From: a virus
Lineage: Duplodnaviria > Heunggongvirae > Uroviricota > Caudoviricetes
IMG/VR virus record: IMGVR_UViG_2537561965_000009
DNA: 52,523 nt
Strand: one strand, 5' to 3'
Shown: positions 1-19,249 of the stretch, piece after piece
Position numbering within the stretch: the stretch's first letter is position 1
Layout: each line of letters begins with the position of its first letter
The notes under the pieces: generated by a model
What the model was told of the DNA's origin: nothing
Seen by the model: the letters and a program-made list of their open reading frames with translations, nothing else
The model's database searches: none
Position numbers and translations under genes: made by a program

Positions 1-1131
1 TCAAATGACCAGTTTTTTCCATTCCTTACCGCGTGCGTCGTTGTAAATATCGGTCATTTTTTGATTCGAATGGCCTAGCAAAATTTTGGTATCAACCCCC
101 TGCTCTCTGAACAATCGCTCTGATAAAGATCTCTGCTCATGGAAAGAGGGTGGGGTGCCATTAGCACGCCAGTTGTAATCCACAGAATCCCGGGCTTTTT
201 TAAATGCAACGGTTAATGTTGCTGGCTTAACCATCCCGCCGCGCTTAGCTGTCCCTTTCGCGTGATGGTGGTGCAATAGCCACGGACTAAGAACGCAATC
301 GCGGCAGGATGACACTACATCATCCAGGGTGAGATTTAATTTATCGCAACGCAGAGCCAGAGGGATGGCAATCCGGGTTCCTGTTTTTTGCTGTTCGACA
401 TGAAGATAACCATCCCGGATATCCGAAAATTGCATTTTGCAAATATCTGAAAGGCGCTGGCCTGTCATCAGTGCCAGCAGCATACCGCGCTGTAAAAAGT
501 AACCATCCTTTTCCGCTGCGTTATAAATCATCATCCACTCATCAAAAGTCAGTCGCTGTCTTGATATCCGCACCTGCGGTTTTTTTGCCGATTCTGCAGG
601 GTTAAAGCCTGGCGGGACATCGCCCGTTTGCTGAGCTTCCCGGAAAACATCGATCAGTACTTTCCTGAAAATTTGTCCCATTCTGTTATGTCCTCTGGCC
701 TTGTACTCTTCCAGTACTGATACCACATCTTTTACGGTTATGGCATCTAACGGTCTGGTGCCAAAACGTTCATCAAATACCCTGAGAGGGGCCGCTTTCT
801 GTTTCAGCGTGTTGAGTTTGATCTCGCCGTTTTCATATCTTTCCTGTTGAATTTTTCTGTAATTATTCAGAAAAATGGTAACGGTTGATGAACCGCCGGT
901 ATCACTAATAATTTTCTCCTGCAGACTGAGCATTTGTTCCATTTGCTGCCGGGCAAGACGGCTGTTCGCTTCTGCTGCAATAGTTTCTGCCAGTTTCTGG
1001 TCAATACTGCCGAGACCGTGATTTTTGCCTGTTATGGGATGCCTGTAACGCCAGTAAACTTTGTTATTTCTTTTGTCAAAATACGGAGATAATCCCGGAA
1101 CATCGGTTTTATATTTTCGCGGGCGCGCCAT
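1..1131 (-). CDS. int: phage integrase (tyrosine recombinase)
   Basis: 376-aa ORF with ATG at 1131 and stop at 1-3; leftmost prophage gene; its 5' end is overlapped by a small excisionase-like ORF. Confidence 0.85.
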   Translation of the reverse strand: MARPRKYKTDVPGLSPYFDKRNNKVYWRYRHPITGKNHGLGSIDQKLAETIAAEANSRLARQQMEQMLSLQEKIISDTGGSSTVTIFLNNYRKIQQERYENGEIKLNTLKQKAAPLRVFDERFGTRPLDAITVKDVVSVLEEYKARGHNRMGQIFRKVLIDVFREAQQTGDVPPGFNPAESAKKPQVRISRQRLTFDEWMMIYNAAEKDGYFLQRGMLLALMTGQRLSDICKMQFSDIRDGYLHVEQQKTGTRIAIPLALRCDKLNLTLDDVVSSCRDCVLSPWLLHHHHAKGTAKRGGMVKPATLTVAFKKARDSVDYNWRANGTPPSFHEQRSLSERLFREQGVDTKILLGHSNQKMTDIYNDARGKEWKKLVI

Positions 1132-1357
1132 CTTCCAGTATCCTCTTCAAAGCAGGGTGATCTGTGGCGATCACCTCCGGCTTGTTTACCATTCCGACAA
1201 AGCGAGCTTGCGGATCCACTCGCCAGCGTCTCCCAACTTTTTTGGGGAGAGGAAATATCATTCCGGCTTTAGCGTATTTACTTAACGTACTCGGAGTAGG
1301 GACCGGTTCACTGAATTCCTCTTTTGCCCACTCAGTGAGCAGAATAAGTCTTGCCAT
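1109..1357 (-). CDS. xis: excisionase-like DNA-binding protein
   Basis: 82-aa basic ORF directly upstream of and overlapping int (ATG at 1357); contains a KKVGRRWRV-type motif typical of small Xis/AlpA-like proteins. Confidence 0.7.
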   Translation of the reverse strand: MARLILLTEWAKEEFSEPVPTPSTLSKYAKAGMIFPLPKKVGRRWRVDPQARFVGMVNKPEVIATDHPALKRILEDGAPAKI

Positions 1358-1421
1358 GAGCGTCGTTCGCTAATCATGGTCGCCGCCACTATAGCTGGTG
1401 GGCAACGACCGGGGTTGAACA

Positions 1422-3893
1422 TTAAAAATCAGCCTGATTCGGGATCAGTTTTTGCCAGATAACTGAAACGTATTTTGCCTGGTAACGGGCGTCATCAAGT
1501 GCATTATGGCGCTCACCTTCGAATGGAATAGCCGTTCTGGCATCGAAGTCTATGGCTTTCCCCAGCTCAACGATTGTGCGTACATCGCGATCGTTGTAGT
1601 AACGCCATGGGCAGGGGATCCCCTGCCGTTCGTATGAACGGCGCAAAATCGTGTTGTCGAAGTTGGCTCCATTTCCCCAGACCTGAACAAAAAATTCGCC
1701 GGAGTTTTCGTCGATAAATTCCCGCAATTGCAGCAGTGCATCATCTAACGGGATTTCATCGGTCAGAATGGCAGATTGCGCCTCCCGTGATTGCTTAAGC
1801 CACCATTTAATGGTGCCACGATCAATGACTCCGCCAGCAGTATCCATATCGATGGTCTTACTAAATTCCGGCCCCATATCTCCGGTTTGCGGATCGAAAA
1901 ATATTGCACCTATTGAGATAAGCGGGGCATCGGGATTTTTTCCCATGGTTTCAAGGTTGATCATCATGTGGTGCCACATTCTGCTGGTGGATGTGATAAC
2001 GTGATGACCGTTCATCGCAATTAAGGGATCTGCCGTCTCGCCAGTTTCACTATCGCTGGCGTGATCCTGAGCGCTACCAGCATTCTCCTTGTGTGGATGT
2101 TCAGCGCCTTCCATTTCCTTCGGATCATTTTCCTGAACTTCAACCTGATTCTCTTCATCGAATGTTTCCTGGTATGTTGCGTCGCCCATTACCGCGCCAC
2201 AATCAGGGCAGTTGCCACCACCGCTTTGACCGCAGGCGGTGCAGACTTTTTCCGGTTCCTGTTGCGCTACTGGCTCAGGTTGTTTCGTTTCTGGCTCGTT
2301 TTGTAACGCATTTGGGCTGTTTTGTTCCGCTTTCTGGCCGTTCTGTTCCGTTTCTTGTTGGTTCTGATTCACTGAATCGCGGGTTTCAATCCCCTTCACC
2401 CATTTCGGATCATTCGGGTCGCTAATCCCTGCAACAAATTCACCACGTGATACAGCAAGCAACTTATTGGCGTCAGGCTGGCTGATATTGGCTGCCTGCA
2501 TAATTTTGTTTACTTCGTCAGCGGTAACTTTTACCGGCTCTGGTTGTGCGATCGTGTCAGATGCACCAGTATTTTGTTGTGAACCTGAGTATGTACTGTT
2601 TTTGCGGGCGAAATATTCTTCTTTCGTGATTTCAGTAGCCCCGGCAGCCAGCGCCTTATCCAGACCAGAAAGTTTGTTTGCGCGACCGTATTTTTCGCCA
2701 TCCTTGTCGGTGAAGAGGAAGTAGAACGGCCCTTCACGCTCTACAGATGGTTCGACTTCCACTTTGCATTCGGTTTTTTCGTTGTCCGGAATTGCCGTTT
2801 CCACTGCATCAGTTTCTGGTACTGGCGACGAGAGAGTATCAGTTGCGCTCTGATTTCTTCCTTCATCTTCAAACACGCCCTTTGTAGTCAGGTATTCAGT
2901 AATGTATTTGTTCAGTGCCACAGGGTCTTTGTGAATGTCGATCGGACGTTCACGGACAAGGCCAAAAATAGTCTGGCGGTCGTAGCGAAGGGCATCAGGC
3001 TGTTTGCGCATTGATGCCGAGATACGCTTCCAGTCTTCGCGGTCGTTGTCGATAACTTCATTTTTTGCCCAGCGATGGATGCTGCCGTCAATGTTTCCGG
3101 CATCCACATCACCAGGCCAGAGAGCGTAGGCCAGTTCGTCATCCAGTGTTTTCCATGTCTGCTTGTATTCGCGATGAATGGCAGCAATGACCGGGCTGAT
3201 TTTTCCTGTTGAATTTTCACTGTGCTGTTGATTGGTTCTGGCGCGGGCGAGATCAACAACAGACGTGTATTTTCCGGTTTCCTTGCGTTCACCTTCGCGA
3301 CGTTTTTTCCAGATGCGCATCTCTGCCTGAATTTCGGGCCATTTGGCACCAGGCTTACATTTATGCTTAACCCACCCGATGGCATGCAGCTTAAGCTCCG
3401 GATACATGGCGTTAACTTCTGGCATTTTCATCAACGCTTCAACGATATGTCCGTCGAATGTTGCCATGTCTTCCTGCAACAATTCCTGTGCGCTAATAAC
3501 CATATCAACGGTGATGTTTTCACATGTGTCGAACTTAACCATGACAGCGTTCTGTACTTCAGGGGACAGCTTGTCAAAATTGACGTTCATCGGATCGGAT
3601 TCTGGTTCGACCGGAATAAAGGAAGCGGATTCCTCATCCCAGCGGTTTTCCTGCATATATTCAGCATCCCAGGAATCGAGGGCAGGGCGGGGTATACCGG
3701 GTTTATCCTCGCAGACAAGAAATTTATAAGCGCAGTCCTGAGCAGCCGGATAATGTTCCAGGAATTGCCAGTGAAATTTTGCGCGGGCGCGACGTTCATC
3801 ACCGGCTTCAATGGCAGTGGCTACAGCGACGGCACCTTCTTCCTTTATTGCCTGTTCGTCCGGAATGGCGGCGCAAATAAAGACTTTACTCAT
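1422..3893 (-). CDS. large prophage exonuclease (often annotated exodeoxyribonuclease VIII-like); C-terminal DnaQ-like 3'-5' exonuclease motifs
   Basis: 823-aa ORF, GAGG Shine-Dalgarno before ATG 3893; C-terminal domain has Exo II-like GNGANFDNTIL and Exo III-like HNALDDARYQA motifs; central Cys4 cluster CTACGQSGGGNCPDCG; acidic linker. Confidence 0.6.
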   Translation of the reverse strand: MSKVFICAAIPDEQAIKEEGAVAVATAIEAGDERRARAKFHWQFLEHYPAAQDCAYKFLVCEDKPGIPRPALDSWDAEYMQENRWDEESASFIPVEPESDPMNVNFDKLSPEVQNAVMVKFDTCENITVDMVISAQELLQEDMATFDGHIVEALMKMPEVNAMYPELKLHAIGWVKHKCKPGAKWPEIQAEMRIWKKRREGERKETGKYTSVVDLARARTNQQHSENSTGKISPVIAAIHREYKQTWKTLDDELAYALWPGDVDAGNIDGSIHRWAKNEVIDNDREDWKRISASMRKQPDALRYDRQTIFGLVRERPIDIHKDPVALNKYITEYLTTKGVFEDEGRNQSATDTLSSPVPETDAVETAIPDNEKTECKVEVEPSVEREGPFYFLFTDKDGEKYGRANKLSGLDKALAAGATEITKEEYFARKNSTYSGSQQNTGASDTIAQPEPVKVTADEVNKIMQAANISQPDANKLLAVSRGEFVAGISDPNDPKWVKGIETRDSVNQNQQETEQNGQKAEQNSPNALQNEPETKQPEPVAQQEPEKVCTACGQSGGGNCPDCGAVMGDATYQETFDEENQVEVQENDPKEMEGAEHPHKENAGSAQDHASDSETGETADPLIAMNGHHVITSTSRMWHHMMINLETMGKNPDAPLISIGAIFFDPQTGDMGPEFSKTIDMDTAGGVIDRGTIKWWLKQSREAQSAILTDEIPLDDALLQLREFIDENSGEFFVQVWGNGANFDNTILRRSYERQGIPCPWRYYNDRDVRTIVELGKAIDFDARTAIPFEGERHNALDDARYQAKYVSVIWQKLIPNQADF

Positions 3894-3988
3894 TTTGTTT
3901 TAACCTCATTACAGATTTCAGGGTGAACGAATCCCTGCCATTGCTGGCATTTTTAATCCGTTGGTATGGCGTTAATATGGCTGGCGGG

Positions 3989-4177
3989 TTATCCAGCCGG
4001 TATTTCGTTATTCAGGTTCAGCGATACTTTTTTTAACGGGAGGCATTCACCGGGGATTTTTTGTTCGTCCCTTACCTGAATGCAGGATGACTTACTGTCA
4101 TAAATTCCGGTAATCACATTTTGTGGCTCACCCGTTATAAGAAAAACGGTCATCACCAGTGCAAATGCTGAAGTCAC
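3989..4177 (-). CDS. ydfD: small YdfD-like prophage protein
   Basis: 62-aa ORF (GTG start overlapping dicB stop as GTGA); hydrophobic N-terminus; same position and size as ydfD downstream of dicB in Qin-type prophages. Confidence 0.5.
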   Translation of the reverse strand: MTSAFALVMTVFLITGEPQNVITGIYDSKSSCIQVRDEQKIPGECLPLKKVSLNLNNEIPAG

Positions 4178-4362
4178 TGCTGTTCTCCGATAATACCAAG
4201 TTCAAGAAGGGCAATTCTGGAAAGTATGGAATTATCATTGAGAAGATAAGGTTCATATTTTCTCATCTTAATGGCATCTTCCGTAAACTCCCGGTTACTG
4301 AGCAGAACACCAATATCAAAACAACCTTCAGACGTATTAACGTTTGGTAATAACGTTTCCAT
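4174..4362 (-). CDS. dicB: cell-division inhibitor DicB-like protein
   Basis: 62-aa product METLLPNVNTSEGCFDIGV... recognised as DicB-like from memory; GAGG SD before ATG 4362; lies downstream of the DicF sRNA sequence. Confidence 0.65.
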   Translation of the reverse strand: METLLPNVNTSEGCFDIGVLLSNREFTEDAIKMRKYEPYLLNDNSILSRIALLELGIIGEQQ

Positions 4363-4521
4363 TATCGCGTCCTCAACAATGAATTTTGTGATGCGGTGCC
4401 TGGTGCCTCCAGGTGACGTTAACCAGTTAACAATTAACGCCGGATACAGAGAATCCACCCATAACACTGTTTTTGGTTTTAACTGTTCCGCGTGCGCTCA
4501 GCCGCATTCACCACATCACAA

Positions 4522-4579
4522 AATTCACTTTAAAAAGGGCGGCAGAGCAGTCACGGAGTAAAACTGATACCGCCAAACG
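4522..4579 (-). ncRNA. dicF: DicF small regulatory RNA
   Basis: Minus-strand sequence UUUCUGGUGACGUUUGGCGGUAUCAGUUUUACUCCGUGACUGCUCUGCCGCCC followed by a U-run matches the DicF sRNA as I recall it; located between ydfC-like and dicB-like genes as in Qin. Confidence 0.6.
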
Positions 4580-4927
4580 TCACCAGAAAATTGATAACAG
4601 AGGGCGTTGCAGCGGAGTTGTCACTTAAGCGTATGGTCAACCTGACAACCCGGTGTCCTCAACGGAGGAAGGAATAACCCCGCCATACTTACCGCCGCGC
4701 CATTTCGCGGAGTGCCACAACCGGAAGCGCACGGTCGAACTAAATTTAACGACACCGTACAGAGAGACCAATTTCGCCGTGCGCTTTCGCTTTATGCCCT
4801 GACTTTTCAGGGACATATCCTTTCAGTAAACTGTCAGTGCCGGATGTTCACCCGTGTCCGGCGCACGCACTCCACCTGACCCGTGGAGAACTCCTTAATT
4901 ACCAACCTTAGCTTCGTTGGTTAGCTA

Positions 4928-5146
4928 TTAACGCGGGTATGTAACCATTCTGGCAATGCTTAATGCCGCTGCTTTTTCCAGCCTGGTGATATCCTGCTCC
5001 AGAGCGGACAGATTTTCAGCCTGCTTAGTCCTGGCTTCATTGGCCCATTTCAGATCCTGCGCTGCATTAATTTTCTGGCGCATCCACTCATAAAGTTCAT
5101 CATCGGTATAGTCTGGCGCGATGATGACGGGTTCTCGTTTCTGCAT
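4928..5146 (-). CDS. ydfC: YdfC-like small prophage protein
   Basis: 72-aa ORF, same size and operon position as ydfC in the Qin dicB operon. Confidence 0.5.
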   Translation of the reverse strand: MQKREPVIIAPDYTDDELYEWMRQKINAAQDLKWANEARTKQAENLSALEQDITRLEKAAALSIARMVTYPR

Positions 5147-5175
5147 ACTGATTCCTCGCGGTGCTGCTTCGCTTA

Positions 5176-5304
5176 TCAGCCGTTAGATTTTGCCGAGCTG
5201 GAAAGCGCCTGTTTAAACTCACTGAAGCTGAGAGCTTCTTCGCCTTCGGCAAGGCCTTCGAAGTATTCTTCGTAAGCCTTTTCCATGATTGTGTCGAAAT
5301 CCAT
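5176..5304 (-). CDS. ydfB: YdfB-like small acidic protein
   Basis: 42-aa ORF MDFDTIMEKAYEEYFEGLAEGEEALSFSEFKQALSSSAKSNG found by manual translation (below the 60-aa cutoff of the ORF track); size and position match ydfB. Confidence 0.45.
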   Translation of the reverse strand: MDFDTIMEKAYEEYFEGLAEGEEALSFSEFKQALSSSAKSNG

Positions 5305-5305
5305 A

Positions 5306-5461
5306 TCACTCACCTGAGTTTCTTTCCAGCCAGCGACGGGCACCATTTTCGGTTTTAAACGTTTTGCTTTTGGTATACGTCATTGCGGTGAACGTGCCGT
5401 CCTGGTTGGGGAACACGCCACATACCAGAGATTCGCTGTTGCCAAGATCGATAGTATCCAT
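5306..5461 (-). CDS. ydfA: YdfA-like (DUF1391-type) small protein
   Basis: 51-aa ORF MDTIDLGNSESLVCGVFPNQDGTFTAMTYTKSKTF... with GAGG SD; first gene of the leftward early operon. Confidence 0.5.
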   Translation of the reverse strand: MDTIDLGNSESLVCGVFPNQDGTFTAMTYTKSKTFKTENGARRWLERNSGE

Positions 5462-5627
5462 GCTGACCTCATTTCCCCTTAACGCCGGGGGAGCGGAACA
5501 AAAACCTGCTGCATAGTTATTAAAGTTGAACCCTGCCGTCATGTTCTTACGCCTCGGGCTGGCTACTTAACCCCTGACCACTGCCTGGTAACTCGAGGTA
5601 TTGCCCTGTATTGTGTGGGACGGGATG

Positions 5628-5635
5628 GGTTGGTA
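5628..5635. repeat. target-site duplication GGTTGGTA (left copy)
   Basis: 8-bp direct repeat identical to 8335-8342, immediately flanking the IS66-family element. Confidence 0.8.
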
Positions 5636-5688
5636 GTAACCGGCTCATTTAAACCGTCTGGTCTGTTTCCTCCGGCTCTACAAAAATA

Positions 5689-6366
5689 ATGTCCATCATT
5701 TTTAATGGACACTATCGTATGAAACACCGGACCTGGATCACTGAAGCTTTACGTCTTCACTTTGAAGAACATTTACCCCGGGTTGTGGCCGGGCGTCGCC
5801 TGGGTGTACCAAAATCAACAGTTTGTAGTATGTTCGTGCGCTTTCGGAGAGCTGGCCTTTCGTGGCCTTTGCCCGCAGGCATGTCGGAGCAGGAACTTGA
5901 TGCCTGCCTTTACGGACAATTTTCCACGGTACCAGTCGTACGTCCTGAAAGCACCGTTATATCCGAAGCCCCCGTGGTAAAAAAACGTCCCCGGCGGCCC
6001 AACTTCCCTTATGAGTTTAAAATCGCCTTAGTGGAGCAGTCACTGCAGCCCGGAGCCTGTGTGGCGCAGATCGCCCGGGAAAACGGAATCAACGATAACC
6101 TGCTCTTCAACTGGCGCCATCAATACCGGAAAGGTGGCCTGCTGCCTTCCGGAAAAAATATGCCGGCACTGCTTCCCGTGACGTTAACGCCGGAGCCGGA
6201 TAATAAAATCCCGGCCCCCGCACAGGAACCAGAGCAGATAAATACACCGTCCGACAGTCTGTGTTGTGAGCTGGTTCTGCCGGCCGGAACTCTCAGGCTT
6301 AAAGGTAAACTGACGCCGGCGTTATTACAGACACTTATCCGCGAAATAAAAGGGAGCAGCCACTGA
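5689..6366 (+). CDS. IS66-family accessory protein TnpA (HTH)
   Basis: 225-aa ORF with IS3/IS66 orfA-like HTH segment FKIALVEQSLQPGACVAQIARENGINDNLLFNWRHQYRKGG; stop overlaps start of tnpB. Confidence 0.7.
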   Translation: MSIIFNGHYRMKHRTWITEALRLHFEEHLPRVVAGRRLGVPKSTVCSMFVRFRRAGLSWPLPAGMSEQELDACLYGQFSTVPVVRPESTVISEAPVVKKRPRRPNFPYEFKIALVEQSLQPGACVAQIARENGINDNLLFNWRHQYRKGGLLPSGKNMPALLPVTLTPEPDNKIPAPAQEPEQINTPSDSLCCELVLPAGTLRLKGKLTPALLQTLIREIKGSSH

Positions 6367-6713
6367 TGATATCTCTCCCTGCAGGTTCGCGTATCTGGCT
6401 GGTTGCAGGTATCACCGATATGCGAAATGGCTTTAACGGCCTGGCATCAAAAGTTCAGAACGTCCTGAAGGATGACCCGTTCTCCGGACACCTGTTCATC
6501 TTCCGCGGACGCCGGGGTGACCAGATAAAAGTGTTGTGGGCTGACAGTGACGGACTGTGCCTCTTCACCAAACGCCTGGAGCGGGGCCGCTTCGTCTGGC
6601 CAGTCACCCGTGACGGCAAGGTGCACCTTACTCCGGCTCAGTTATCCATGCTTCTTGAAGGTATCAACTGGAAGCACCCGAAACGAACGGAACGCGCTGG
6701 AATCCGCATATAA
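6366..6713 (+). CDS. IS66-family TnpB
   Basis: 115-aa ORF MISLPAGSRIWLVAGITDMRNGFNGL... characteristic of IS66 orfB. Confidence 0.8.
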   Translation: MISLPAGSRIWLVAGITDMRNGFNGLASKVQNVLKDDPFSGHLFIFRGRRGDQIKVLWADSDGLCLFTKRLERGRFVWPVTRDGKVHLTPAQLSMLLEGINWKHPKRTERAGIRI

Positions 6714-6732
6714 CCCGTTGTAAAGTGAGGAT

Positions 6733-8304
6733 ATGGACACCTCACTTGCTCATGAGAACGCCCGCCTGCGGGCACTGTTGCAGACGCAACAGGACACCAT
6801 CCGCCAGATGGCCGAATATAACCGCCTGCTCTCACTGCGGGTGGCGGCTTATGCTTCCGAAATCAACCGGCTGAAGGCGCTGGTTGCGAAACTGCAACGT
6901 ATGCAGTTCGGTAAAAGCTCAGAAAAACTTCGTGCAAAAACCGAACGGCAGATACAGGAAGCACAGGAGCGAATCAGCGCACTTCAGGAAGAAATGGCGG
7001 AAACGCTGGGTGAGCAATATGACCCGGTACTGCCATCCGCCCTGCGCCAGTCTTCAGCCCGTAAACCGTTACCGGCCTCACTTCCCCGTGAAACCCGGGT
7101 TATCCGGCCGGAAGAGGAATGCTGTCCTGCCTGTGGTGGTGAACTCAGTTCTCTGGGATGTGATGTGTCAGAGCAACTGGAGCTTATCAGCAGCGCCTTT
7201 AAGGTTATCGAAACACAACGTCCGAAACAGGCCTGTTGCCGGTGCGACCATATCGTGCAGGCACCAGTACCTTCAAAACCCATTGCACGCAGTTATGCCG
7301 GAGCGGGGCTTCTGGCCCATGTTGTCACCGGGAAATATGCAGACCATCTGCCGTTATACCGCCAGTCAGAAATATACCGTCGTCAGGGAGTGGAGCTGAG
7401 CCGTGCCACACTGGGGCGCTGGACAGGTGCTGTTGCTGAACTGCTGGAGCCGCTGTATGACGTCCTGCGCCAGTATGTGCTGATGCCCGGTAAAGTCCAT
7501 GCTGATGATATCCCCGTCCCGGTCCAGGAGCCGGGCAGCGGTAAAACCCGGACAGCCCGGCTGTGGGTCTACGTCCGTGATGACCGTAACGCCGGTTCAC
7601 AGATGCCCCCGGCGGTCTGGTTCGCGTACAGTCCGGACCGGAAAGGTATCCATCCACAAAATCACCTGGCCGGTTACAGCGGTGTGCTTCAGGCCGATGC
7701 TTACGGTGGTTACCGGGCGTTATACGAATCCGGCAGAATAACGGAAGCCGCGTGTATGGCTCATGCCCGGAGAAAAATCCACGATGTGCATGCAAGAGCG
7801 CCCACCTACATCACCACGGAAGCCCTGCAGCGTATCGGTGAACTGTATGCCATCGAGGCAGAGGTCCGGGGCTGTTCAGCAGAACAGCGTCTGGCGGCAA
7901 GAAAAGCCAGAGCCGCGCCACTGATGCAGTCACTGTATGACTGGATACAGCAACAGATGAAAACACTGTCGCGTCACTCAGATACGGCAAAAGCGTTCGC
8001 ATACCTGCTGAAACAGTGGGATGCACTGAACGTGTACTGCAGTAATGGCTGGGTGGAAATCGACAACAACATCGCAGAGAACGCCTTACGGGGAGTGGCC
8101 GTAGGCCGGAAAAACTGGATGTTCGCGGGTTCCGACAGCGGTGGTGAACATGCGGCGGTGTTGTACTCGCTGATCGGCACATGCCGTCTGAACAATGTGG
8201 AGCCAGAAAAGTGGCTGCGTTACGTCATTGAACATATCCAGGACTGGCCGGCAAACCGGGTACGCGATCTGTTGCCCTGGAAAGTTGATCTGAGCTCTCA
8301 GTAA
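6733..8304 (+). CDS. IS66-family transposase TnpC
   Basis: 523-aa ORF with N-terminal coiled-coil and Cys-rich CPACG...CCRC region typical of IS66 transposases. Confidence 0.85.
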
Positions 8305-8334
8305 ATATCAATACGGTTCTGACGAGTCGCTTAC

Positions 8335-8342
8335 GGTTGGTA
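8335..8342. repeat. target-site duplication GGTTGGTA (right copy)
   Basis: Identical to 5628-5635. Confidence 0.8.
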
Positions 8343-8349
8343 TGGGAAA

Positions 8350-8378
8350 ACTATAGGAAATGCCTAATTACTTGTCAA
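8350..8378 (-). promoter_or_regulatory. candidate leftward early promoter (PL-like)
   Basis: On the minus strand TTGACA (8378-8373), 17-bp spacer, TATAGT (8355-8350); overlaps operator-like palindromes; predicted start about 8343, right at the IS66 insertion point. Confidence 0.5.
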
Positions 8379-8395
8379 TAGGCTATGCCTAATAA
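8358..8395. promoter_or_regulatory. operator-like palindromes (OL-like)
   Basis: ATAGGCTATGCCTAAT and TGCCTAAT half-sites; the 22-bp TTGTCAATAGGCTATGCCTAAT is the exact reverse complement of 9016-9037 on the other side of the repressor gene. Confidence 0.55.
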
Positions 8396-8486
8396 TTTGG
8401 GCGCGACCTAATAGGTGATGGTTTGTGGGAGAGGTAGTAGGAGTTAACTAACGGGAACTAGGAATTTCCCGTCGGACCATATAAGT

Positions 8487-8963
8487 TTAAGTTCCTGTCT
8501 TGGTGATGTTCTGGCTTTTCCGTTTTGATTCTTGATTTTTCAGATAGTTAGCTACCTTCATTTCCATTGCGGCAATGTAGGCGCGAACGTCATGATCAAC
8601 CCAACTAGGCTCCGTAGCATTTCCAGATAAGAGGAAAGCCACAATTGCTCTTTTTTCATCAGAGGCGGCTTGATAAAGGCTGTTTATGTCTAAAAGTTCA
8701 CTTTTTGTATCTGAAGTGGATGGGGTTGGTATGGGGTATTCGTTAAGCCCCCAATGCTCTGGACCAACCACATCAGAAAAGAAACGCCATAGTTCTGGAA
8801 GTTTGTCTTTACTTATCGAACCTTTCTTAATCCAGTCATGGATTGATGGTGGTTGGACTTTGAAATGACGTGCGATTTCCGCCTTTGATTTGACGGCTCC
8901 TGATGCAATTTTTTTGTTAATGGCCTGCTCAATCGCTCGGCCTAAGTCTTTACCACTAAGCAT
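8487..8963 (-). CDS. prophage repressor, short HTH protein without LexA-like peptidase domain (RacR-like)
   Basis: 158-aa ORF with N-terminal HTH-like segment (AEIARHFKVQPPSIHDWIKKG); AGGAG SD; divergent from a cro-like gene and flanked by two operator sets. Confidence 0.65.
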   Translation of the reverse strand: MLSGKDLGRAIEQAINKKIASGAVKSKAEIARHFKVQPPSIHDWIKKGSISKDKLPELWRFFSDVVGPEHWGLNEYPIPTPSTSDTKSELLDINSLYQAASDEKRAIVAFLLSGNATEPSWVDHDVRAYIAAMEMKVANYLKNQESKRKSQNITKTGT

Positions 8964-9015
8964 TGCTTAATAGTCTCCTATGCGCATCGCGTTAGGCAAT
9001 CCCTACTCTCGATGT

Positions 9016-9060
9016 ATTAGGCATAGCCTATTGACAATTGCATTAGGCTAAGCCTAATAT
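9016..9060 (+). promoter_or_regulatory. OR-like operators with rightward promoter (PR-like)
   Basis: Palindromes ATTAGGCATAGCCTAT and the perfect 17-bp ATTAGGCTAAGCCTAAT; TTGACA at 9031-9036 and TAATAT at 9055-9060 (18-bp spacer) upstream of the cro-like gene. Confidence 0.55.
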
Positions 9061-9087
9061 TGTTGCGTGTTTTTTGGAGTTCATTCG

Positions 9088-9411
9088 ATGAAAAAAGATA
9101 ACTATTCATTCAAACGAGCTTGTGCTGTTGTCGGTGGGCAATCAGCAATGGCTAGGCTTTTAGGTGTATCTCCTCCAAGCGTAAATCAATGGATCAAAGG
9201 TGTACGTCAGTTGCCTGCTGAGAGATGTCCTGCGATTGAACGAGCAACAAAAGGTGGTGTCCTGTGTGAAGAACTTCGTCCTGATGTTGATTGGACATAC
9301 TTACGACGCTCGTCATGTTATTCGCAGAATATGTCGATGAAGCAACCAAATGACGAAAACGATCATACCCGAAGCATCAAGAGGCAAATGATTCATGAAA
9401 ATCAAACATGA
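9088..9411 (+). CDS. ydaS: Cro-like HTH regulator (YdaS-like)
   Basis: 107 aa from ATG 9088 with GGAG SD; MKKDNYSFKRACAVVGGQSAMARLLGVSPPSVNQWIKGVRQLPAERCPAIE recognised as YdaS-like. Confidence 0.65.
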   Translation: MKKDNYSFKRACAVVGGQSAMARLLGVSPPSVNQWIKGVRQLPAERCPAIERATKGGVLCEELRPDVDWTYLRRSSCYSQNMSMKQPNDENDHTRSIKRQMIHENQT

Positions 9412-9820
9412 GCACATCCGCATGGCGATGAATGCTTGGGCATACCCTGATGGTGAGAAAGTTCCTGCAGCTGAAATAGCCCGGACTTATTTCGAACTGG
9501 GGATGACGTTCCCTGAACTGTACGACGACAGCCATCCGGAAGCCCTGGCCCGTAATACACAGAAAATTTTCCGTTGGCTGGATAAAGACACCCCTGATGC
9601 TGTTGAAAAAATTCAGGCTCTGTTACCGGCGATCGAAAAGGCAATGCCGCCTCTGCTGGTGGCCCGTATGCGCAGTCACAGCTCTGAGTATTACCGGGAG
9701 ATTGTCGAACGGCGGGATCGGCTGGTGAAGGATGTCGACGATTTTGTTGCGTCAGCGGTTGTTTTGTATGACCAGATGAATCGCGGCGGCCCGGCAGGGA
9801 ATGCTGTGGTGATGCACTAA
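9395..9820 (+). CDS. ydaT: YdaT-like protein
   Basis: 141-aa ORF overlapping the end of the ydaS-like gene; size and position match ydaT of Rac-type immunity regions. Confidence 0.5.
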   Translation: MKIKHEHIRMAMNAWAYPDGEKVPAAEIARTYFELGMTFPELYDDSHPEALARNTQKIFRWLDKDTPDAVEKIQALLPAIEKAMPPLLVARMRSHSSEYYREIVERRDRLVKDVDDFVASAVVLYDQMNRGGPAGNAVVMH

Positions 9821-9842
9821 AAGCACGGTGTTCGGGGGTTTT

Positions 9843-10805
9843 ATGAGCAGCAAGCTTCATGGTCTTGTCTGGGAAGGGTGCGCCTTCACCGGCATGATCT
9901 TATCCAGGGTGGCGGTTATGGCCCGTCTTGCAGACTACAGCAATGACGAGGGCGTGTCATGGCCTGCCATTGAAACTATCCGGCGTCAGATCGGTGCAAG
10001 AAGTGAATCCACAGTGAAATCGGCTATTGCAGAACTGGCGAAAGAGGGCTGGCTGACGAAGGAAGAGCGTAAGGTCGGTGGGCGTAATGTAAGCAATATC
10101 TATCGACTTAATGTGGAAAAACTCGAAGCAGCTGCGGCGGCGGCGCGTGAGTCATATAAACCGAAAAGAAAAATTAGCCCGGCAAAAAATGACCCGTTAA
10201 CAGTTGACCCGTCAAATATTGACCCCTCAACGGTTGACCCGTCAAATTTTGATGGATCAACTGTTGATAAAAAACTGCCGATTAGGGGGGCGATGATTGA
10301 CCCCGATCCGTCAGTATTAAAACCTGATCCGTCAGATAAAAGATCTTCTTGTCCGGACGCTTCGCAACCGGACCCGCAGACGGCTGAACAGGATTTTTTA
10401 ACCCGACACCCTGACGCGGTTGTGTTCAGTGCGAAAAAACGCCAGTGGGGAAGTCAGGAAGATTTGGTGTGCGCACAGTGGATCTGGGGACGAATCGTGA
10501 GTCTTTACGAGCAGGCGGCCAGCTATGATGGCGAGATCACTAGACCGAAAGAACCCAACTGGACAGCATGGGCCAATGACGTTCGCACAATGCGGATGCT
10601 GGATGGCAGAACTCACAGACAAATTTGTGAAATGTTTGGGCGTCTCCAGCGGGATTCGTTCTGGGTAAAAAACATCATGAGTCCGGCAAAACTCCGGGAA
10701 AAATGGGATGAACTGGTTATCCGCCTGGGGCGTTCGCCTGCGCAGCGTTGCGTGAATCACATTTCTGAACCGGACACTGAAATTCCGCCGGGCTTCAGGG
10801 GGTAA
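9843..10805 (+). CDS. replication initiation protein (O-like; gene contains the iterons)
   Basis: 320 aa from ATG 9843 (GGGGG SD); N-terminal winged-helix-like region; central repetitive DP(S/L)TVD peptide encoded by the iteron array; downstream of the immunity region as expected for replication genes. Confidence 0.55.
   Translation: MSSKLHGLVWEGCAFTGMILSRVAVMARLADYSNDEGVSWPAIETIRRQIGARSESTVKSAIAELAKEGWLTKEERKVGGRNVSNIYRLNVEKLEAAAAAARESYKPKRKISPAKNDPLTVDPSNIDPSTVDPSNFDGSTVDKKLPIRGAMIDPDPSVLKPDPSDKRSSCPDASQPDPQTAEQDFLTRHPDAVVFSAKKRQWGSQEDLVCAQWIWGRIVSLYEQAASYDGEITRPKEPNWTAWANDVRTMRMLDGRTHRQICEMFGRLQRDSFWVKNIMSPAKLREKWDELVIRLGRSPAQRCVNHISEPDTEIPPGFRG
10189..10330. repeat. iteron array, candidate origin of replication inside the replication gene
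   Basis: About six copies of a roughly 15-bp unit with core TGACCCGTCAA (for example TTGACCCGTCAAATAT, TTGACCCCTCAACGG, TTGACCCGTCAAATTT) followed by A-rich sequence; analogous to ori-lambda inside gene O. Confidence 0.5.
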
Positions 10806-10845
10806 GTGTTAATTTCTGGTCATGAGGTAATTTTCAGGAGGGCTT

Positions 10846-11268
10846 GTGGCAAAAGTTTTTACACAAGAAGAGCGGGAAAAAATTAAAGGGCAGGTTGTTG
10901 AACTCGTACGCCAGAGTGGGCGCGAGACGTTACGACAACTGGAAACTAAAACTGGGGCAACAAGATATCTGATGAGCGTTCTGGCCAGAGAGCTGGTTGC
11001 CAGCGGCGATGTATACAACTCCGGCTACGGGTTATTCCCCTCTGAACAGGCGCGTAAGGACTGGCAAAACGCCCGCAAAAAACTCTCGAGGGCAAAGGTG
11101 AAGAAACCTGCTGTGGTTGATCCGGACCTTATCTGGTCATCACCTGACGGAGAAATACGTCGCTACGACAGTCGCCTAAACATAATCTGTCGCGAGTGCC
11201 GGAAGAGTGAAGCTATGCAGCGTGTACTGGCTTTCTATCAGGGTAATTTTCAGGAGGCGGTACTGTGA
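10846..11268 (+). CDS. hypothetical phage protein
   Basis: 140-aa ORF, GTG start with AGGAGGG SD; no family recognised. Confidence 0.45.
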   Translation: MAKVFTQEEREKIKGQVVELVRQSGRETLRQLETKTGATRYLMSVLARELVASGDVYNSGYGLFPSEQARKDWQNARKKLSRAKVKKPAVVDPDLIWSSPDGEIRRYDSRLNIICRECRKSEAMQRVLAFYQGNFQEAVL

Positions 11269-11325
11269 GTGAAATTAGCTATCAGGCTTCAATTACCGCT
11301 GGCATTCGCATCAAAGGAGAGGAGC

Positions 11326-11682
11326 ATGGAAATAAAACCAGAGGATGAGTTAAGCAATATCGTTTTATTTCCGGTAAAAGAGGATGACCCTCGTAATCAG
11401 GTTAATTTTCTTTATGAGCCATCGGAAAGACCATATTGTCATCACGCCTCTGTCCGGGTTGACGAAAAAGAGCGTCAGGTCCGCTGTAAAATCTGCGGTG
11501 CAGTTGTGGAGCCATTTGACTGGATGCTCTCTGTGGCGAAAAGAGAAACCAGACTGGCAGATGATGTAAGGCTCTTGCGTCAAGAGGAGCGGGAAAGGCG
11601 AAAAAATATAGAAAAGCTAATTCAGATTGAGCGTAACGCGAAAGCGCGGATACGCAGGGCGACAAAATCCAGAACTGAATAA
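11326..11682 (+). CDS. hypothetical protein with CxHH...CKIC metal-binding-like motif
   Basis: 118 aa from ATG 11326 preceded by AAGGAGAGGAG; the ORF-track N-terminal extension is an alternative-start artefact. Confidence 0.5.
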   Translation: MEIKPEDELSNIVLFPVKEDDPRNQVNFLYEPSERPYCHHASVRVDEKERQVRCKICGAVVEPFDWMLSVAKRETRLADDVRLLRQEERERRKNIEKLIQIERNAKARIRRATKSRTE

Positions 11683-11775
11683 TTAAATTTAGCTCTGTTA
11701 AAAATTTAATCCTTAACCGGAGGGATTTCTGCACCCTCAGAACATCAGGAGGCCGCCCGAAAGGGCGGTAGTTAA

Positions 11776-11958
11776 ATGCGAAAGTTTAAAATAATTATTG
11801 AAACGGGAATAGCCGGTGGAGATTTCGAGGATGAATTCGAAGTGGATGATGATGCGACGCCTGATGAAATACATGACGAAGCAAAAGATATTTTCTTTAA
11901 CTACTGCAATTACTCATATCACGAAATAAAAGACGAAGAGGAAGAACAAAATGGCTGA
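11776..11958 (+). CDS. small acidic hypothetical protein
   Basis: 60-aa ORF with ATG start. Confidence 0.4.
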   Translation: MRKFKIIIETGIAGGDFEDEFEVDDDATPDEIHDEAKDIFFNYCNYSYHEIKDEEEEQNG

Positions 11959-12127
11959 TTTTGGTTCAACTAAATACAACGTCAGTTTTGAAGAATGGCA
12001 TGAACTGTTAATGGACTATGCAGAGTTACGTGGTGGCAGTGCTGCTGATGCTGAAGCATGGCGTGATGATTATGAAGCAGGAAAAACTCCGGTCGAAGCA
12101 TATTGTGATGAGTGGGGCGATGAATGA
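11951..12127 (+). CDS. small hypothetical protein
   Basis: 58-aa ORF MADFGSTKYNVSFEEWHELLMDYAELRGG... found manually; overlaps neighbours by a few nucleotides. Confidence 0.4.
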   Translation: MADFGSTKYNVSFEEWHELLMDYAELRGGSAADAEAWRDDYEAGKTPVEAYCDEWGDE

Positions 12128-12440
12128 GCGAGGTTAATTATCAGGAAGGGCATGAAACGGCGGGGCAAGCAAAAACAGTGGCATGGCGATATCGCTACGT
12201 GAAAAAAAAGGCGTTACGGACTTTCAGGGGAAGTAGTGGTCTGGTGACTGGAAATATGTACCGAAAAAAGAGGATTGTAACGACAGGCCGAACTATGAAA
12301 TTCAGGCCTTATTCACTGCCCCGCCAGTCCCGGTTACATCAGAAGAACTGGTTAAAGCTGTGCACTTTTATGAACAACTAAAACGCGAAAATCCACCAGC
12401 ATCCGGAAACCTGATTACAGATTCCCAGATAAGGCAATGA
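12124..12440 (+). pseudogene. probable disrupted gene (frame change at an A8 tract plus in-frame amber codon)
   Basis: ATG 12124 opens a protein-like N-terminus up to the A8 run at 12202-12209; the protein-like C-terminal segment WSGDWKYVPKKEDCNDRPNYEIQALFTAPPVPVTSEELVKAVHFYEQLKRENPPASGNLITDSQIRQ lies in another frame, has no start codon and follows a TAG at 12234-12236. Confidence 0.35.
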
Positions 12441-12610
12441 GCTACCTGGCGCAGAACGGGCTGATAAGTATGGGGAATGTTTTACGATGAATATTTAGAC
12501 TAAAGAGTTTGTAACGCTATGTAAGTGATTTTTTCTGGTTTAGATATTTATATATCCGGCCAAATTGAGGTGTGTTTAAATGTAATTGCACATTGATTGT
12601 AGGAGGAATA

Positions 12611-12790
12611 ATGAAAAACGCATTGCAGTTTTTGTTTGTTGCGTTCTGGTTGTTCGTATCATGTATGCCCATCATCTTCACAGCAAGGTATATGGAAAAA
12701 GTTGATGTTTTGATATTAATATTTGGATATATAAATGCCCTTTTTTTAGGGGTGTTCATGGCGGTCATGTGCATTGAATACTGGCGGTAA
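12611..12790 (+). CDS. small two-helix membrane protein (moron candidate)
   Basis: 59-aa hydrophobic product MKNALQFLFVAFWLFVSCMPIIF... with strong AGGAGG SD at ideal spacing; lies in an AT-rich islet. Confidence 0.45.
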   Translation: MKNALQFLFVAFWLFVSCMPIIFTARYMEKVDVLILIFGYINALFLGVFMAVMCIEYWR

Positions 12791-12935
12791 ATACAGCGAA
12801 CGCCATTGGTTTAGTTGGATATTTACTGTGCCGGACAAAAACGGTTTGCGGGGAAATCTTAGTTAAGTAGAATGACTGCGGGTGCTTGAGGCTATCTGTC
12901 TCAGGCATGAACACCAAAAGGCAGATAGAGAAAAG

Positions 12936-13000
12936 CCCCAGTTAACATTACGCGTCCTGCAAGACGCTTAACATTAATCTGAGGCCATATCTATGCTCTA
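12936..13000 (-). ncRNA. sok: candidate Sok antisense RNA
   Basis: Minus-strand promoter-like TTGCCT (rc of 13031-13036) and TAACCT (rc of 13007-13012) with 17-bp spacer, positioned like the sok promoter of hok/sok loci; extent is an estimate. Confidence 0.35.
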
Positions 13001-13205
13001 CACACGTAGGTTAGCCTCTTACGTGCCGAAAGGCAAGGAGAAGCAGGCTATGAAGCAGCAAAAGGCGATGCTAATCGCCCTGATCGTCATCTGTTTAACC
13101 GTCATAGTGACGGCACTGGTAACGAGGAAAGACCTCTGCGAGGTACGAATCCGAACCGGCCAGACGGAGGTCGCTGTCTTCACAGCTTACGAACCTGAGG
13201 AGTAA
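12993..13205 (+). CDS. mok: mok-like leader reading frame of the hok locus
   Basis: ORF starting upstream of hok and running to the same stop (here in frame with hok); the 5' leader matches the conserved hok mRNA pattern GCTTGAGGC...AGCCTCTTAC...AAGGAGAAG. Confidence 0.4.
   Translation: MLYTRRLASYVPKGKEKQAMKQQKAMLIALIVICLTVIVTALVTRKDLCEVRIRTGQTEVAVFTAYEPEE
13050..13205 (+). CDS. hok: Hok/Gef-family type I toxin
   Basis: 51-aa product MKQQKAMLIALIVICLTVIVTALVTRKDLCEVRIRTGQTEVAVFTAYEPEE has the Hok signature; AGGAG SD at 13036-13040. Confidence 0.85.
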   Translation: MKQQKAMLIALIVICLTVIVTALVTRKDLCEVRIRTGQTEVAVFTAYEPEE

Positions 13206-13273
13206 GAGACCAGGCGGGGGAGAATCCCTCGCCACCTCTGATGTGTCAGGCATCCTCAACGCACCCGCACTTA

Positions 13274-13299
13274 ACCCGCTTCGGCGGGTTTTGTTTTTT
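13274..13299 (+). terminator. rho-independent terminator of the hok transcript
   Basis: ACCCGC-TTCG-GCGGGT hairpin followed by a T-rich run; an upstream 3' element CCTCAACGCACCC is complementary to the 5' GGGTGCTTGAGG (fold-back pairing). Confidence 0.6.
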
Positions 13300-13371
13300 C
13301 CTGGCATTCTGGTTTACAATTCGCACGTCAGCCTGAACACCTGACACCTGCTGCGCCAGCAGAGAAAACAG

Positions 13372-13644
13372 ATGGCGCACAAAACCAAATTTCACAATTC
13401 TGATACCGACCTTGCCATCCGGCATGAGCGGCGTTCACACGCATTTAAAACCGACTGGTACCAACACCCACCATGTACTGAAGAACAGGCCGAATGGCTG
13501 ATTCATAACTACCGCAGACGTGGATATGAGTTTAGGAAAGCCCTCACCCTCGATTATCGTCACTGGATAATCTACGTCAGACTCCCTTATTCCGAACGCC
13601 CACCGCGTCCGTCCCGCACATTCCAGCAACGGATCTGGAGGTAA
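13372..13644 (+). CDS. hypothetical phage protein
   Basis: 90-aa ORF with ATG start. Confidence 0.4.
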   Translation: MAHKTKFHNSDTDLAIRHERRSHAFKTDWYQHPPCTEEQAEWLIHNYRRRGYEFRKALTLDYRHWIIYVRLPYSERPPRPSRTFQQRIWR

Positions 13645-13645
13645 C

Positions 13646-14704
13646 GTGCGGGTATTACTTCGATCTGTTCCGGTACCGGAACTTGGGCTGGTGGTCCTTA
13701 AGCCTGGTCGTGAATCCATGCAGGTATTCCGCAGCGGTCGTGTACTGGTGGAGCCGGAACCGAAAAGCATGCGCGGTCTGCCGTCCGGAGTCGTTCCTGC
13801 CGTTCGCCAGCCATTGGCGGAGGATAAATCACTACTGCCATTTTTCAGCGATGAGCGGGTGATTCGTGCTGCTGGCGGTGCTGGTGCGCTGTCTGACTGG
13901 CTGTTACGCCACGTTAAATCCTGCCAGTGGCCTCATGGTGACTATCATCACAGTGAAATCGTCATACATCGTTACGGTACCGGCGCGATGGTGTTGTGCT
14001 GGCACTGCGACAACCAGCTGCGTGACCAGACCTCCGAATCACTCGGGCAACTTGCTCATCAAAACCTGTCAGCATGGATGATTGACGTCATACGCCATGC
14101 AGTGAATGGCACGCAGGAGCGGGAATTATCGCTGGCTGAATTGTGCTGCTGGGCTTCTGTAAATGATGTAGTGGATGCCATGACCGAAAATATGGCGCGT
14201 CGAATCCTGAAGCTTCCGGGTGAAAAAATCCGCTCAGTATACCGCGAGAGCGACATCGTACCGGGAGAGCAGACCGCCATCAGCATACTGAAGCAGCGCA
14301 CAAAAAATATTGCGCCGTTGCCTCACGCCCACCAGCAACAGAATCCACCACAGGAAAAGACGGTGGTCAGCATTGCCGTTGATCCGGAGTCACCGGCTCA
14401 GTATCTCCAGCGCCAGAAACCACAACGGGAAGAGATGCCTGTATACACGCGCTGGGTAAAAACGCAGAAATGCATGACGTGTGGCAATCAGGCAGATGAT
14501 CCGCATCACATCATTGGTCATGGACTGGGAGGGATGGGAACAAAGGCTGATGATTTGTTTGTTATTCCGCTGTGCCGTAAATGCCATAGCGAACTACACG
14601 CCGGGGTAAAAGATTTTGAAGAAAAACACGGCAGCCAGCTGTTGTTGCTGATTCGTTTTTTAATGCACGCGAGAAATTCGGGTGTCCTGAAGTGGAAAGC
14701 ATGA
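13646..14704 (+). CDS. DUF968-like (YdfU-type) phage protein with C-terminal HNH-like Cys/His motif
   Basis: 352-aa ORF; C-terminal CMTCGNQADDPHHIIGHGLGG...CRKCHSELH resembles an HNH/zinc-finger nuclease motif; directly upstream of rusA. Confidence 0.5.
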   Translation: MRVLLRSVPVPELGLVVLKPGRESMQVFRSGRVLVEPEPKSMRGLPSGVVPAVRQPLAEDKSLLPFFSDERVIRAAGGAGALSDWLLRHVKSCQWPHGDYHHSEIVIHRYGTGAMVLCWHCDNQLRDQTSESLGQLAHQNLSAWMIDVIRHAVNGTQERELSLAELCCWASVNDVVDAMTENMARRILKLPGEKIRSVYRESDIVPGEQTAISILKQRTKNIAPLPHAHQQQNPPQEKTVVSIAVDPESPAQYLQRQKPQREEMPVYTRWVKTQKCMTCGNQADDPHHIIGHGLGGMGTKADDLFVIPLCRKCHSELHAGVKDFEEKHGSQLLLLIRFLMHARNSGVLKWKA

Positions 14705-15624: not shown

Positions 15625-15713
15625 TGATAGAAGTGCATCAGCTATCAATCTTGTTGACGTTCATCAAGGTCTGGACAATACTTACGTTAAGTTCCAACAT
15701 ATGGAAGATAAGA

Positions 15714-17437: not shown

Positions 17438-17572
17438 TTTATTTTCTTTTTTGTTCAGTTGATTGTTTTTGTTTGTAAAATGTCTTGATTTTTTGCCAAT
17501 AAACTGTTTCAATCCAGCTACGCTTCGCAAAGCTATACCGCGAGGCGAATAGCAGACATGGACACCTGAAAG

Positions 17573-19117: not shown

Positions 19118-19166
19118 AACGGATGAGATTGCAGAATTAATTACGCACCATTATTATTCTGCTCCC

Positions 19167-19242: not shown

Positions 19243-19249
19243 TCACATA

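Follow-up and report, generated by a model that had tools for sequence, protein, structure and literature searches.

An ISCro1 insertion immediately downstream of a RacR-type PL-like promoter and its probable polar effect on the leftward operon of an Escherichia coli prophage

What becomes of the leftward early operon of a prophage when an insertion sequence (IS) lands between the operon and its promoter? The locus examined here raises this question in an E. coli lambdoid prophage integrated at ompW, which was analysed as one stretch of 52,523 nucleotides (the window, 52.5 kb; IMG/VR record IMGVR_UViG_2537561965_000009) and otherwise looks complete. Our reading, to which we give a probability of roughly 0.7, is that ISCro1 recently hopped into the first bases of the RacR-repressed PL transcript, that most leftward transcription now terminates before reaching its genes, and that the prophage is thereby partly locked in. 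The element and its immediate borders comprise the following features.

5628..5635, no strand: left copy of the 8-bp target duplication GGTTGGTA, which is single copy in the empty site
5636..8334, plus strand: ISCro1 (IS66 family), 2699 bp, 100.0% full-length identity to annotated ISCro1 copies
5636..5657, plus strand: left terminal inverted repeat, GTAACCGGCTCATTTAAACCGT
5689..6366, plus strand: tnpA, IS66 accessory protein (Pfam HTH_Tnp_1; RefSeq label on identical copies)
6366..6713, plus strand: tnpB, IS66 Orf2 (Pfam TnpB_IS66, E 4.7e-40)
6733..8304, plus strand: tnpC, DDE transposase (Pfam DDE_Tnp_IS66, E 2.2e-103; zf-IS66; LZ_Tnp_IS66; IS66 C-terminal element)
8313..8334, plus strand: right terminal inverted repeat, ACGGTTCTGACGAGTCGCTTAC (reverse complement GTAAGCGACTCGTCAGAACCGT)
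8335..8342, no strand: right copy of GGTTGGTA, an exact repeat of the left copy

An earlier reading made without database searches (the sequence-only reading) had proposed an intact IS66-family element at 5636-8334, and the Pfam domains together with the BLAST identities confirm this and specify the element as ISCro1. Its full 2699 bp are 100.0% identical to copies that several E. coli strains carry on chromosomes and plasmids under the label 'IS66-like element ISCro1 family transposase', and the name rests on the RefSeq annotation of these copies. The three open reading frames typical of the IS66 family, tnpA, tnpB and tnpC, are intact and consecutive. Members of this family have imperfect terminal inverted repeats of ~20-30 bp starting with 5'-GTAA; those of the present copy, GTAACCGGCTCATTTAAACCGT against GTAAGCGACTCGTCAGAACCGT, are 22 nt long, imperfect and 73% complementary, with GTAA termini. 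Four other ISCro1 copies measure 2699 or 2698 bp and each is flanked by its own 8-bp duplication, so the element boundaries are right. ISCro1, named first in Citrobacter rodentium and common in E. coli, is thus matched here over all 2699 bp, and also in its three-gene layout, its GTAA termini and the 8-bp length of its duplication; only the insertion site sets the present copy apart, a site found occupied in none of 5426 complete E. coli genomes. A true ISCro1 end further to the left, or a target motif shared among insertions, was considered and rejected: the four loci read, at which junction BLAST matches ran 9-18 bp into the flank, are unrelated sites with 8-bp duplications that happen to be similar to GGTTGGTA, and this similarity is why they ranked first in BLAST.

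The duplication on either side of the element, of the length characteristic of the IS66 family, points to a simple insertion, the chance identity of two given 8-mers being 1 in 65,536. We reconstructed the empty site in silico (1400 bp) and compared it with the 5426 complete E. coli genomes, 85 of which carry it unbroken at a best identity of 99.9%. In strain EC24 (NZ_CM169477.1) GGTTGGTA is present once at the junction, and by BLAST the window matches the EC24 prophage at 99.98% over 1-5635 and at 99.1% over 8335-23754, the two flank matches overlapping there by exactly 8 bp. In isolated phages, including Tritos and vB_EcoS-689R5, the ydfA side runs unbroken as far as the junction. The filled site was found by junction BLAST in 0 of the 5426 genomes, and the left junction had no exact match in GTDB representative genomes or JGI metagenomes. 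The sequence-only reading had claimed a simple transposition with a perfect duplication, probably a recent one, and had named beforehand the lack of an uninterrupted junction in relatives as the result that would count against it. Both claims hold up, with such a junction in 85 genomes; the transposition into this prophage is probably recent, as suggested by the 100% identity of the IS to other copies, the 99.98% identity of the left flank to an IS-free relative and the absence of the filled junction from all three collections.

On the right, the insertion borders an immunity region of the RacR type.

8350..8378, minus strand: PL-like promoter TTGACA-17-TATAGT, an 11/12 sigma-70 match with its start predicted near 8343
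8354..8366, no strand: predicted RacR operator OL1, TAGGAAATGCCTA, overlapping the -10 hexamer and spacer, one mismatch to consensus
8379..8391, no strand: predicted RacR operator OL2, TAGGCTATGCCTA, adjoining the -35 hexamer, a perfect consensus match
8487..8963, minus strand: racR repressor, 158 aa, intact, 92% identical to K-12 RacR and annotated racR in relatives
8993..9060, no strand: rightward control region with three predicted RacR operators and a promoter
9067..9411, plus strand: ydaS-like Cro-type gene (Pfam YdaS_toxin, E 4.6e-30; P22_Cro)

The PL hexamers (TTGACA at 8378-8373 and TATAGT at 8355-8350, 17-bp spacer) form the only 11/12 sigma-70 match in the window, where simulated sequence gives an expectation of 0.5, and they are unchanged in K-12 Rac; we predict a sigma-70 early promoter starting near 8343. 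From the end of its -10 hexamer it is 7 nt to the duplication and 15 nt to the end of the IS, a spacing that would place the IS at about +2 to +9 of the predicted transcript and antisense to it. The sequence-only reading, which had described a near-consensus leftward promoter embedded in operator-like palindromes, an insertion ~8 bp downstream of the -10 hexamer and an IS lying antisense between PL and the operon (tnpA/B/C on the plus strand, PL on the minus strand), agrees with these results on each point.

The two palindromes match the published RacR operator consensus, (T/A)TAGGC-n3-GCCTA(T/A) (PMC9638921), and are predicted to be RacR operators. Only five matches to this consensus occur in the window, two at PL and three at the racR/ydaS promoter (8993-9005, 9018-9030 and 9044-9056), against 0.98 expected; none of 100 shuffles reached five. 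The rightward promoter, TTGACA-18-TAATAT (9031-9060, plus strand), has the hexamers and spacing of the published PydaST (PMC11879457), and racR is divergent from a ydaS/ydaT pair on the opposite strand (Pfam YdaS_toxin and YdaT_toxin), the arrangement of RacR-type immunity. The insertion has not altered PL, its two predicted operators, racR or the rightward control region.

The other border of the element faces the operon itself.

5462..5627, minus strand: native 5' leader of the leftward operon, separated from PL by the IS, conserved in other prophages
5306..5461, minus strand: ydfA, first gene of the leftward operon (Pfam DUF1391, E 2.9e-27; start mapped from EC24)
5176..5304, minus strand: ydfB (mapped from the EC24 annotation; flank 99.98% identical)
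4928..5146, minus strand: ydfC (ORF; annotated ydfC at the equivalent EC24 position)
4537..4588, minus strand: DicF small RNA (Rfam RF00039, 76.7 bits vs gathering score 48)
4174..4362, minus strand: dicB, cell-division inhibitor (Pfam DicB, E 1.8e-37; coordinates from the EC24 annotation)
3989..4177, minus strand: DUF1482 protein (Pfam DUF1482)
1422..3893, minus strand: 823-aa exonuclease (Pfam Rv2179c-like 3'-5' exoribonuclease domain, E 1.7e-64)
1109..1357, minus strand: excisionase, xis (Pfam Exc, E 1.3e-07; annotated excisionase in EC24)
1..1131, minus strand: integrase, last gene of the leftward early operon (Pfam Arm-DNA-bind_1 and Phage_integrase; annotated in EC24)

Pfam, Rfam and the EC24 annotation agree with the downstream gene order proposed earlier, now read as ydfA-ydfB-ydfC-DicF-dicB-DUF1482-exonuclease-xis-int. 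Two known systems allow its regulation to be assessed. DicF and dicB preceded by ydfA, ydfB and ydfC are the gene set of the Qin dicBF operon, whose dicBp is repressed by DicA, and the logic is also alike, with a toxic operon directly after the repressor gene and a PL-like promoter with operators (PMC10448788); here, in contrast, the repressor is RacR and the operon runs on into exonuclease, xis and int. K-12 Rac shares RacR at 92% identity, the PydaST hexamers (PMC11879457), the operator motif at both promoters (PMC9638921), unchanged PL hexamers and operator cores, and a well conserved leader next to PL. It differs in its leftward cargo (ydaG/ydaF-kilR-recET, as against the Qin-type ydfABC-dicF-dicB with a different exonuclease), whereas the present prophage is located at ompW, has a full late region and has its PL split from the operon by the IS. 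The leader recurs in conserved form upstream of ydaG/ydaF in K-12 Rac, as well as in an O103:H2 strain 129 prophage; its fold (5500-5635, minus strand) scored z +1.31 against shuffles and does not support a structured native leader. In K-12, lowering RacR increases expression of ydaG, ydaF, kilR and others 40-70-fold and that of xisR/intR about 100-fold, and it sets off excision (PMC11014345). The leftward operon in immunity regions of this type is therefore dependent on transcription under RacR control, a dependence published for K-12 Rac only.

The insertion has put 2.7 kb of antisense IS between PL and the entire gene series from ydfA to int. Once RacR repression is lifted, polymerase starting at PL would have to cross 2.7 kb of untranslated RNA with stops in all frames (27-36 stop codons per frame), and most of this transcription would probably end inside the IS, most likely via Rho, as in classical polar IS mutations. 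Long untranslated RNA with stop codons is the classical substrate of Rho-dependent polarity, and the classical polar insertions include IS1 and IS2 in gal and lac and the IS2 insertion r32 in phage lambda. As a prophage lesion, IS insertion is documented in E. coli O157 Sakai (PMC2669165), and ISCro1 itself, in the afa regulatory region, lowered the afaA transcript by 2.5 log2 (PMC8764528). The present case resembles the classical insertions and the Sakai prophages in that an IS stands between a promoter and its genes and lower downstream expression is expected; it differs in that the IS was inserted into the first bases of the predicted transcript and no coding sequence is broken. It is reasonable to infer that the operon is decoupled from PL, which could lock the prophage in or silence dicB, as the sequence-only reading had suggested; such decoupling would be in keeping with the classical polarity of IS insertions and with the lack of an outward promoter. 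Immunity and rightward expression (replication, lysis, late) would be expected to be normal, and induction of the excision functions and of toxic DicB/DicF much weaker.

A near-neutral insertion, with PL reading through the IS and the leftward operon, including xis/int and dicB, still induced, is unlikely. The antisense strand has no significant intrinsic terminator, the count of such sites not exceeding the shuffle expectation. It also lacks any strong C-rich/G-poor tract, and no Rho loading site stands out, since C and G are about equal overall (0.275 vs 0.272) and only three 80-nt windows have a C/G of at least 1.8. Moreover, with PL near consensus, even partial read-through could give useful levels. 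Against this stand the 2.7 kb of RNA with its stops in every frame, the lack of any N-like antiterminator between PL and ydfA among the ORFs and Pfam matches, and the position of any nut-like site of the conserved leader, which would now be downstream of the IS. Expression of xis/int and dicB could still be kept up by weak internal promoters or by an antitermination system that went unrecognised. The sole terminator-like hairpin on the antisense strand, at 6233-6210, folds like its shuffles (z -0.42) and was rejected.

The IS might instead replace PL, its left end carrying an outward or hybrid promoter that drives ydfABC-dicF-dicB constitutively and free of RacR. Outward promoters are known in other IS families and are discussed in that context in PMC8764528. 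The sequence-only reading had suggested looking for one in this IS, and a relaxed scan of its minus strand gave 8/12 sites only, including a weak outward site near the left end (5723..5695, TTCATA-17-AATGAT). We consider such a takeover very unlikely, however, as the IS, the junction and the leader contain no minus-strand promoter of at least 9/12, the junction is without an acceptable -35/-10 pair, constitutive DicB/DicF is toxic and would be selected against (PMC10448788), and ISCro1 lowered rather than raised afaA transcription (PMC8764528). The IS offers no convincing substitute for PL. That the junctions are an assembly artefact with a misplaced IS copy is scarcely credible: ISCro1 is a multi-copy repeat in many genomes and the filled site is absent from every other collection searched, but misassembly would not create an exact 8-bp duplication with flanks that meet precisely in the empty site, a duplication length shared by the four other ISCro1 copies.

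The preferred reading, polar termination within a recently acquired ISCro1, changes no concept: ISCro1 and polar IS insertion were known already, and so were the repressor system and the operon. What is new is the site, at which a known IS would act in the classical way. It does provide a clean natural example in which one IS hop may uncouple excision and host-toxic genes from the repressor switch, with immunity and the lytic arm intact in the IS-bearing prophage, and could serve as a natural 'PL-null' RacR-type prophage to be set against 99%-identical IS-free relatives.

A broader proposal, that the conserved ydfA/ydaF leader is a recurrent ISCro1 landing site whose insertions are kept by selection as a step in prophage domestication, is quite improbable. 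If it were true, silencing of a toxic repressor-controlled operon by an IS at PL, fixing the prophage in place, would be a regular part of domestication. A hot spot was rejected, with one other ISCro1 in a homologous leader among the 5426 genomes and no enrichment over the ~0.9 expected at uniform density by rough estimate (~14,208 IS places in 28 Gb and at most ~9,800 leader copies of ~175 bp). This second, independent insertion, in O103:H2 strain 129, is oriented alike and sits 63 bp more distant from PL; it has its own duplication, ACTTAACC, and is carried by a different prophage with a different repressor.

The octamer GGTTGGTA occurs twice in the window, at 5628-5635 and 8335-8342, and encloses a 2699-bp element (5636-8334) whose termini are imperfect 22-nt inverted repeats (73% complementarity), each starting GTAA when read inward.

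Open reading frames of the element
5689-6366, + strand, ORF 1, HTH_Tnp_1
6366-6713, + strand, ORF 2, TnpB_IS66 (E 4.7e-40)
6733-8304, + strand, ORF 3, DDE_Tnp_IS66 (E 2.2e-103), with IS66 zinc-finger, leucine-zipper and C-terminal domains

Several E. coli strains have copies identical over the full length (100.0%), both chromosomal and plasmid-borne, in which RefSeq labels tnpA, tnpB and an 'IS66-like element ISCro1 family transposase'; judged by this identity, the window element is ISCro1. Four other ISCro1 copies that were read are 2699 bp long, except one frameshifted at 2698 bp, and each is flanked by a separate 8-bp duplication; the boundaries and duplication length seen here therefore fit the element.

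The insertion lies beside PL, a predicted RacR-controlled leftward early promoter on the minus strand (TTGACA, 8378-8373; 17-bp spacer; TATAGT, 8355-8350). It matches at 11 of 12 positions and is the sole site of this quality within the window, with ~0.5 expected in simulated sequence; transcription is predicted to start near 8343, 7 nt past the -10 hexamer. Just upstream on the same strand, the gene at 8963-8487 encodes a 158-aa protein with 92% identity to K-12 RacR and is divergent from YdaS-like and YdaT-like genes; in hexamers and spacing, the rightward promoter (9031-9060, TTGACA-18-TAATAT) agrees with PydaST as published (PMC11879457). Published RacR operators are inverted repeats of the form (T/A)TAGGC-n3-GCCTA(T/A), the half-site being ATTAGGC (PMC9638921). 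A scan of the entire 52.5-kb window for TAGGCNNNGCCTA, with one mismatch allowed, gave five matches where chance predicts ~0.98, a number reached by none of 100 shuffles.

Predicted RacR operators (TAGGCNNNGCCTA scan)
8354-8366, at PL
8379-8391, at PL
8993-9005, at the racR/ydaS promoter
9018-9030, at the racR/ydaS promoter
9044-9056, at the racR/ydaS promoter

Spacing inside each group is 25-26 bp, and at PL one predicted operator overlaps the -10 hexamer and spacer while the other abuts the -35 hexamer. The PL hexamers and operator cores are common to K-12 Rac, where the leader upstream of ydaG/ydaF is well conserved. When RacR is lowered in K-12, expression of ydaG, ydaF, kilR and further leftward genes rises 40-70-fold, that of xisR/intR rises some 100-fold, and Rac is induced to excise (PMC11014345). 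The sequence-only reading had described an intact IS66-family element with a perfect 8-bp duplication, which its frames, termini, flanking octamers and ISCro1 identity confirm; its placing of PL within operator-like palindromes is well founded because of the operator matches, the Rac conservation and the RacR-lowering data.

Leftward operon
5627-5462, - strand, native leader
5461-5306, - strand, ydfA (DUF1391)
5304-5176, - strand, ydfB
5146-4928, - strand, ydfC
4588-4537, - strand, DicF (Rfam, 76.7 bits)
4362-4174, - strand, dicB
4177-3989, - strand, DUF1482
3893-1422, - strand, exonuclease (823 aa)
1357-1109, - strand, xis
1131-1, - strand, int

Coding sequences, operators and promoter elements are all left unbroken by the IS, which lies at roughly +2 to +9 of the predicted PL transcript and physically separates PL and its operators from this operon by 2.7 kb. 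As its genes are on the + strand, PL transcripts would cross it antisense. The antisense RNA has 27-36 stops per frame and, being untranslatable for any length, would be exposed to Rho-dependent termination, the kind of effect known from classical polar IS mutations. We consider a strong polar effect on the leftward operon probable (roughly 0.7). Immunity and rightward expression would stay normal, and induction of xis/int and of DicB/DicF would be weak. In the one published test, the afaA transcript was 2.5 log2 lower with an ISCro1 in the regulatory region of afa (PMC8764528). Substantial read-through of the IS from PL is unlikely. Some results speak against strong polarity: the lone terminator-like hairpin on the antisense strand was no better than shuffles (z -0.42), terminator-like sites there did not exceed expectation, and the antisense RNA contains about as much C as G. 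An IS-borne promoter serving the operon has little probability: no minus-strand promoter of at least 9/12 was found in the IS, junction, leader or operon, and a relaxed scan gave 8/12 sites only. Decoupling of the leftward operon from PL is a plausible functional interpretation of the sequence.

The empty site was rebuilt by removing the IS and keeping one octamer copy (1400 bp). Among 5426 complete E. coli genomes, 85 carry it unbroken (best identity 99.9%), the continuous junction anticipated for IS-free relatives. Strain EC24 (NZ_CM169477.1) reads ...GGGATGGGTTGGTATGGGAAAACTATAGG..., with GGTTGGTA once only; BLAST matches between window and EC24 prophage cover 1-5635 (99.98%) and 8335-23754 (99.1%) and overlap in EC24 by exactly 8 bp. 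The ydfA side is continuous as far as the junction in the isolated phages Tritos (OV696610.1) and vB_EcoS-689R5 (ON470583.1). Filled junctions were found neither in the 5426 genomes nor in GTDB representative genomes or JGI metagenomes. An assembly artefact is given little credence. Because the IS is identical to other copies, the duplication perfect and the flanks nearly identical, these sequences point to a recent insertion.

ISCro1 identity, duplication, empty site and a promoter with predicted operators support the earlier structural interpretation. The IS is the known ISCro1, the control region is Rac's and the operon brings cargo of the Qin dicBF type (PMC10448788); lambdoid prophages damaged by IS elements are well documented (PMC2669165). 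The site alone is new; this is an ordinary IS insertion of low general interest.

A second ISCro1, in a different prophage of O103:H2 strain 129 (NZ_AP038976.1, locus L002 6088-8786), occupies the homologous ydfA leader, oriented like the window copy and 63 bp more distant from PL. It differs from the window copy by 4 nt, its duplication is ACTTAACC (equivalent to window 5565-5572), and a LexA-family protein is annotated in the repressor position; the insertion is an independent event. A hot spot or selection at this leader is possible but unsupported, since one such case among 5426 genomes approximates, on a rough estimate, the prediction from uniform IS density. The ydfB/ydfC region of the strain 129 prophage also contains an IS3-family element. 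Three other ISCro1 copies lie within prophage regions, adjoining lysis genes in RM8385 (L006) and interrupting integrase genes in APEC IMT5155 (L007) and E8 (L008), in agreement with the known bias of IS elements towards prophages.

The 174-nt leader (5462-5635, minus strand) is conserved in the window prophage, in K-12 Rac, where it precedes ydaG/ydaF, and in the O103 prophage, whose repressor differs. With 17 C and 4 G, its first 40 nt form a C-rich, G-poor stretch resembling a Rho loading site, and its fold is no better than shuffles. The remaining prophage looks complete (replication genes, Q-like antiterminator, lysis genes, terminase, portal, capsid, tail), and no second IS was found in it. 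It is mosaic: with the IS removed, 1-23754 has 99.1-99.98% identity to the EC24 prophage at ompW, and the packaging, head and tail part (23754-52523) has only 79-96% and resembles prophages of other strains, NCTC9008 for example, more closely (97%). An Rfam sok antitoxin RNA match (12880-13055, 117 bits), with hokD annotated in that region of the EC24 relative, indicates a hok/sok-type toxin-antitoxin locus. Three consecutive tRNA genes (19167-19413; Ile, Arg, Arg in the relative) and an STnc100 sRNA match (19493-19682, 132 bits) precede the lysis region. Since Pfam finds no peptidase domain in RacR, the KilA-N domain protein at 24409-24930 (E 8.2e-22) could serve as an antirepressor, by analogy with Rem, the antirepressor of DicA in Qin. 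An Rfam IS009 RNA match (49811-50009, 213 bits) lies within the tail-fibre assembly region, and an AraC-family regulator gene (51544-52296, 250 aa) close to the window's right end is possibly prophage cargo.
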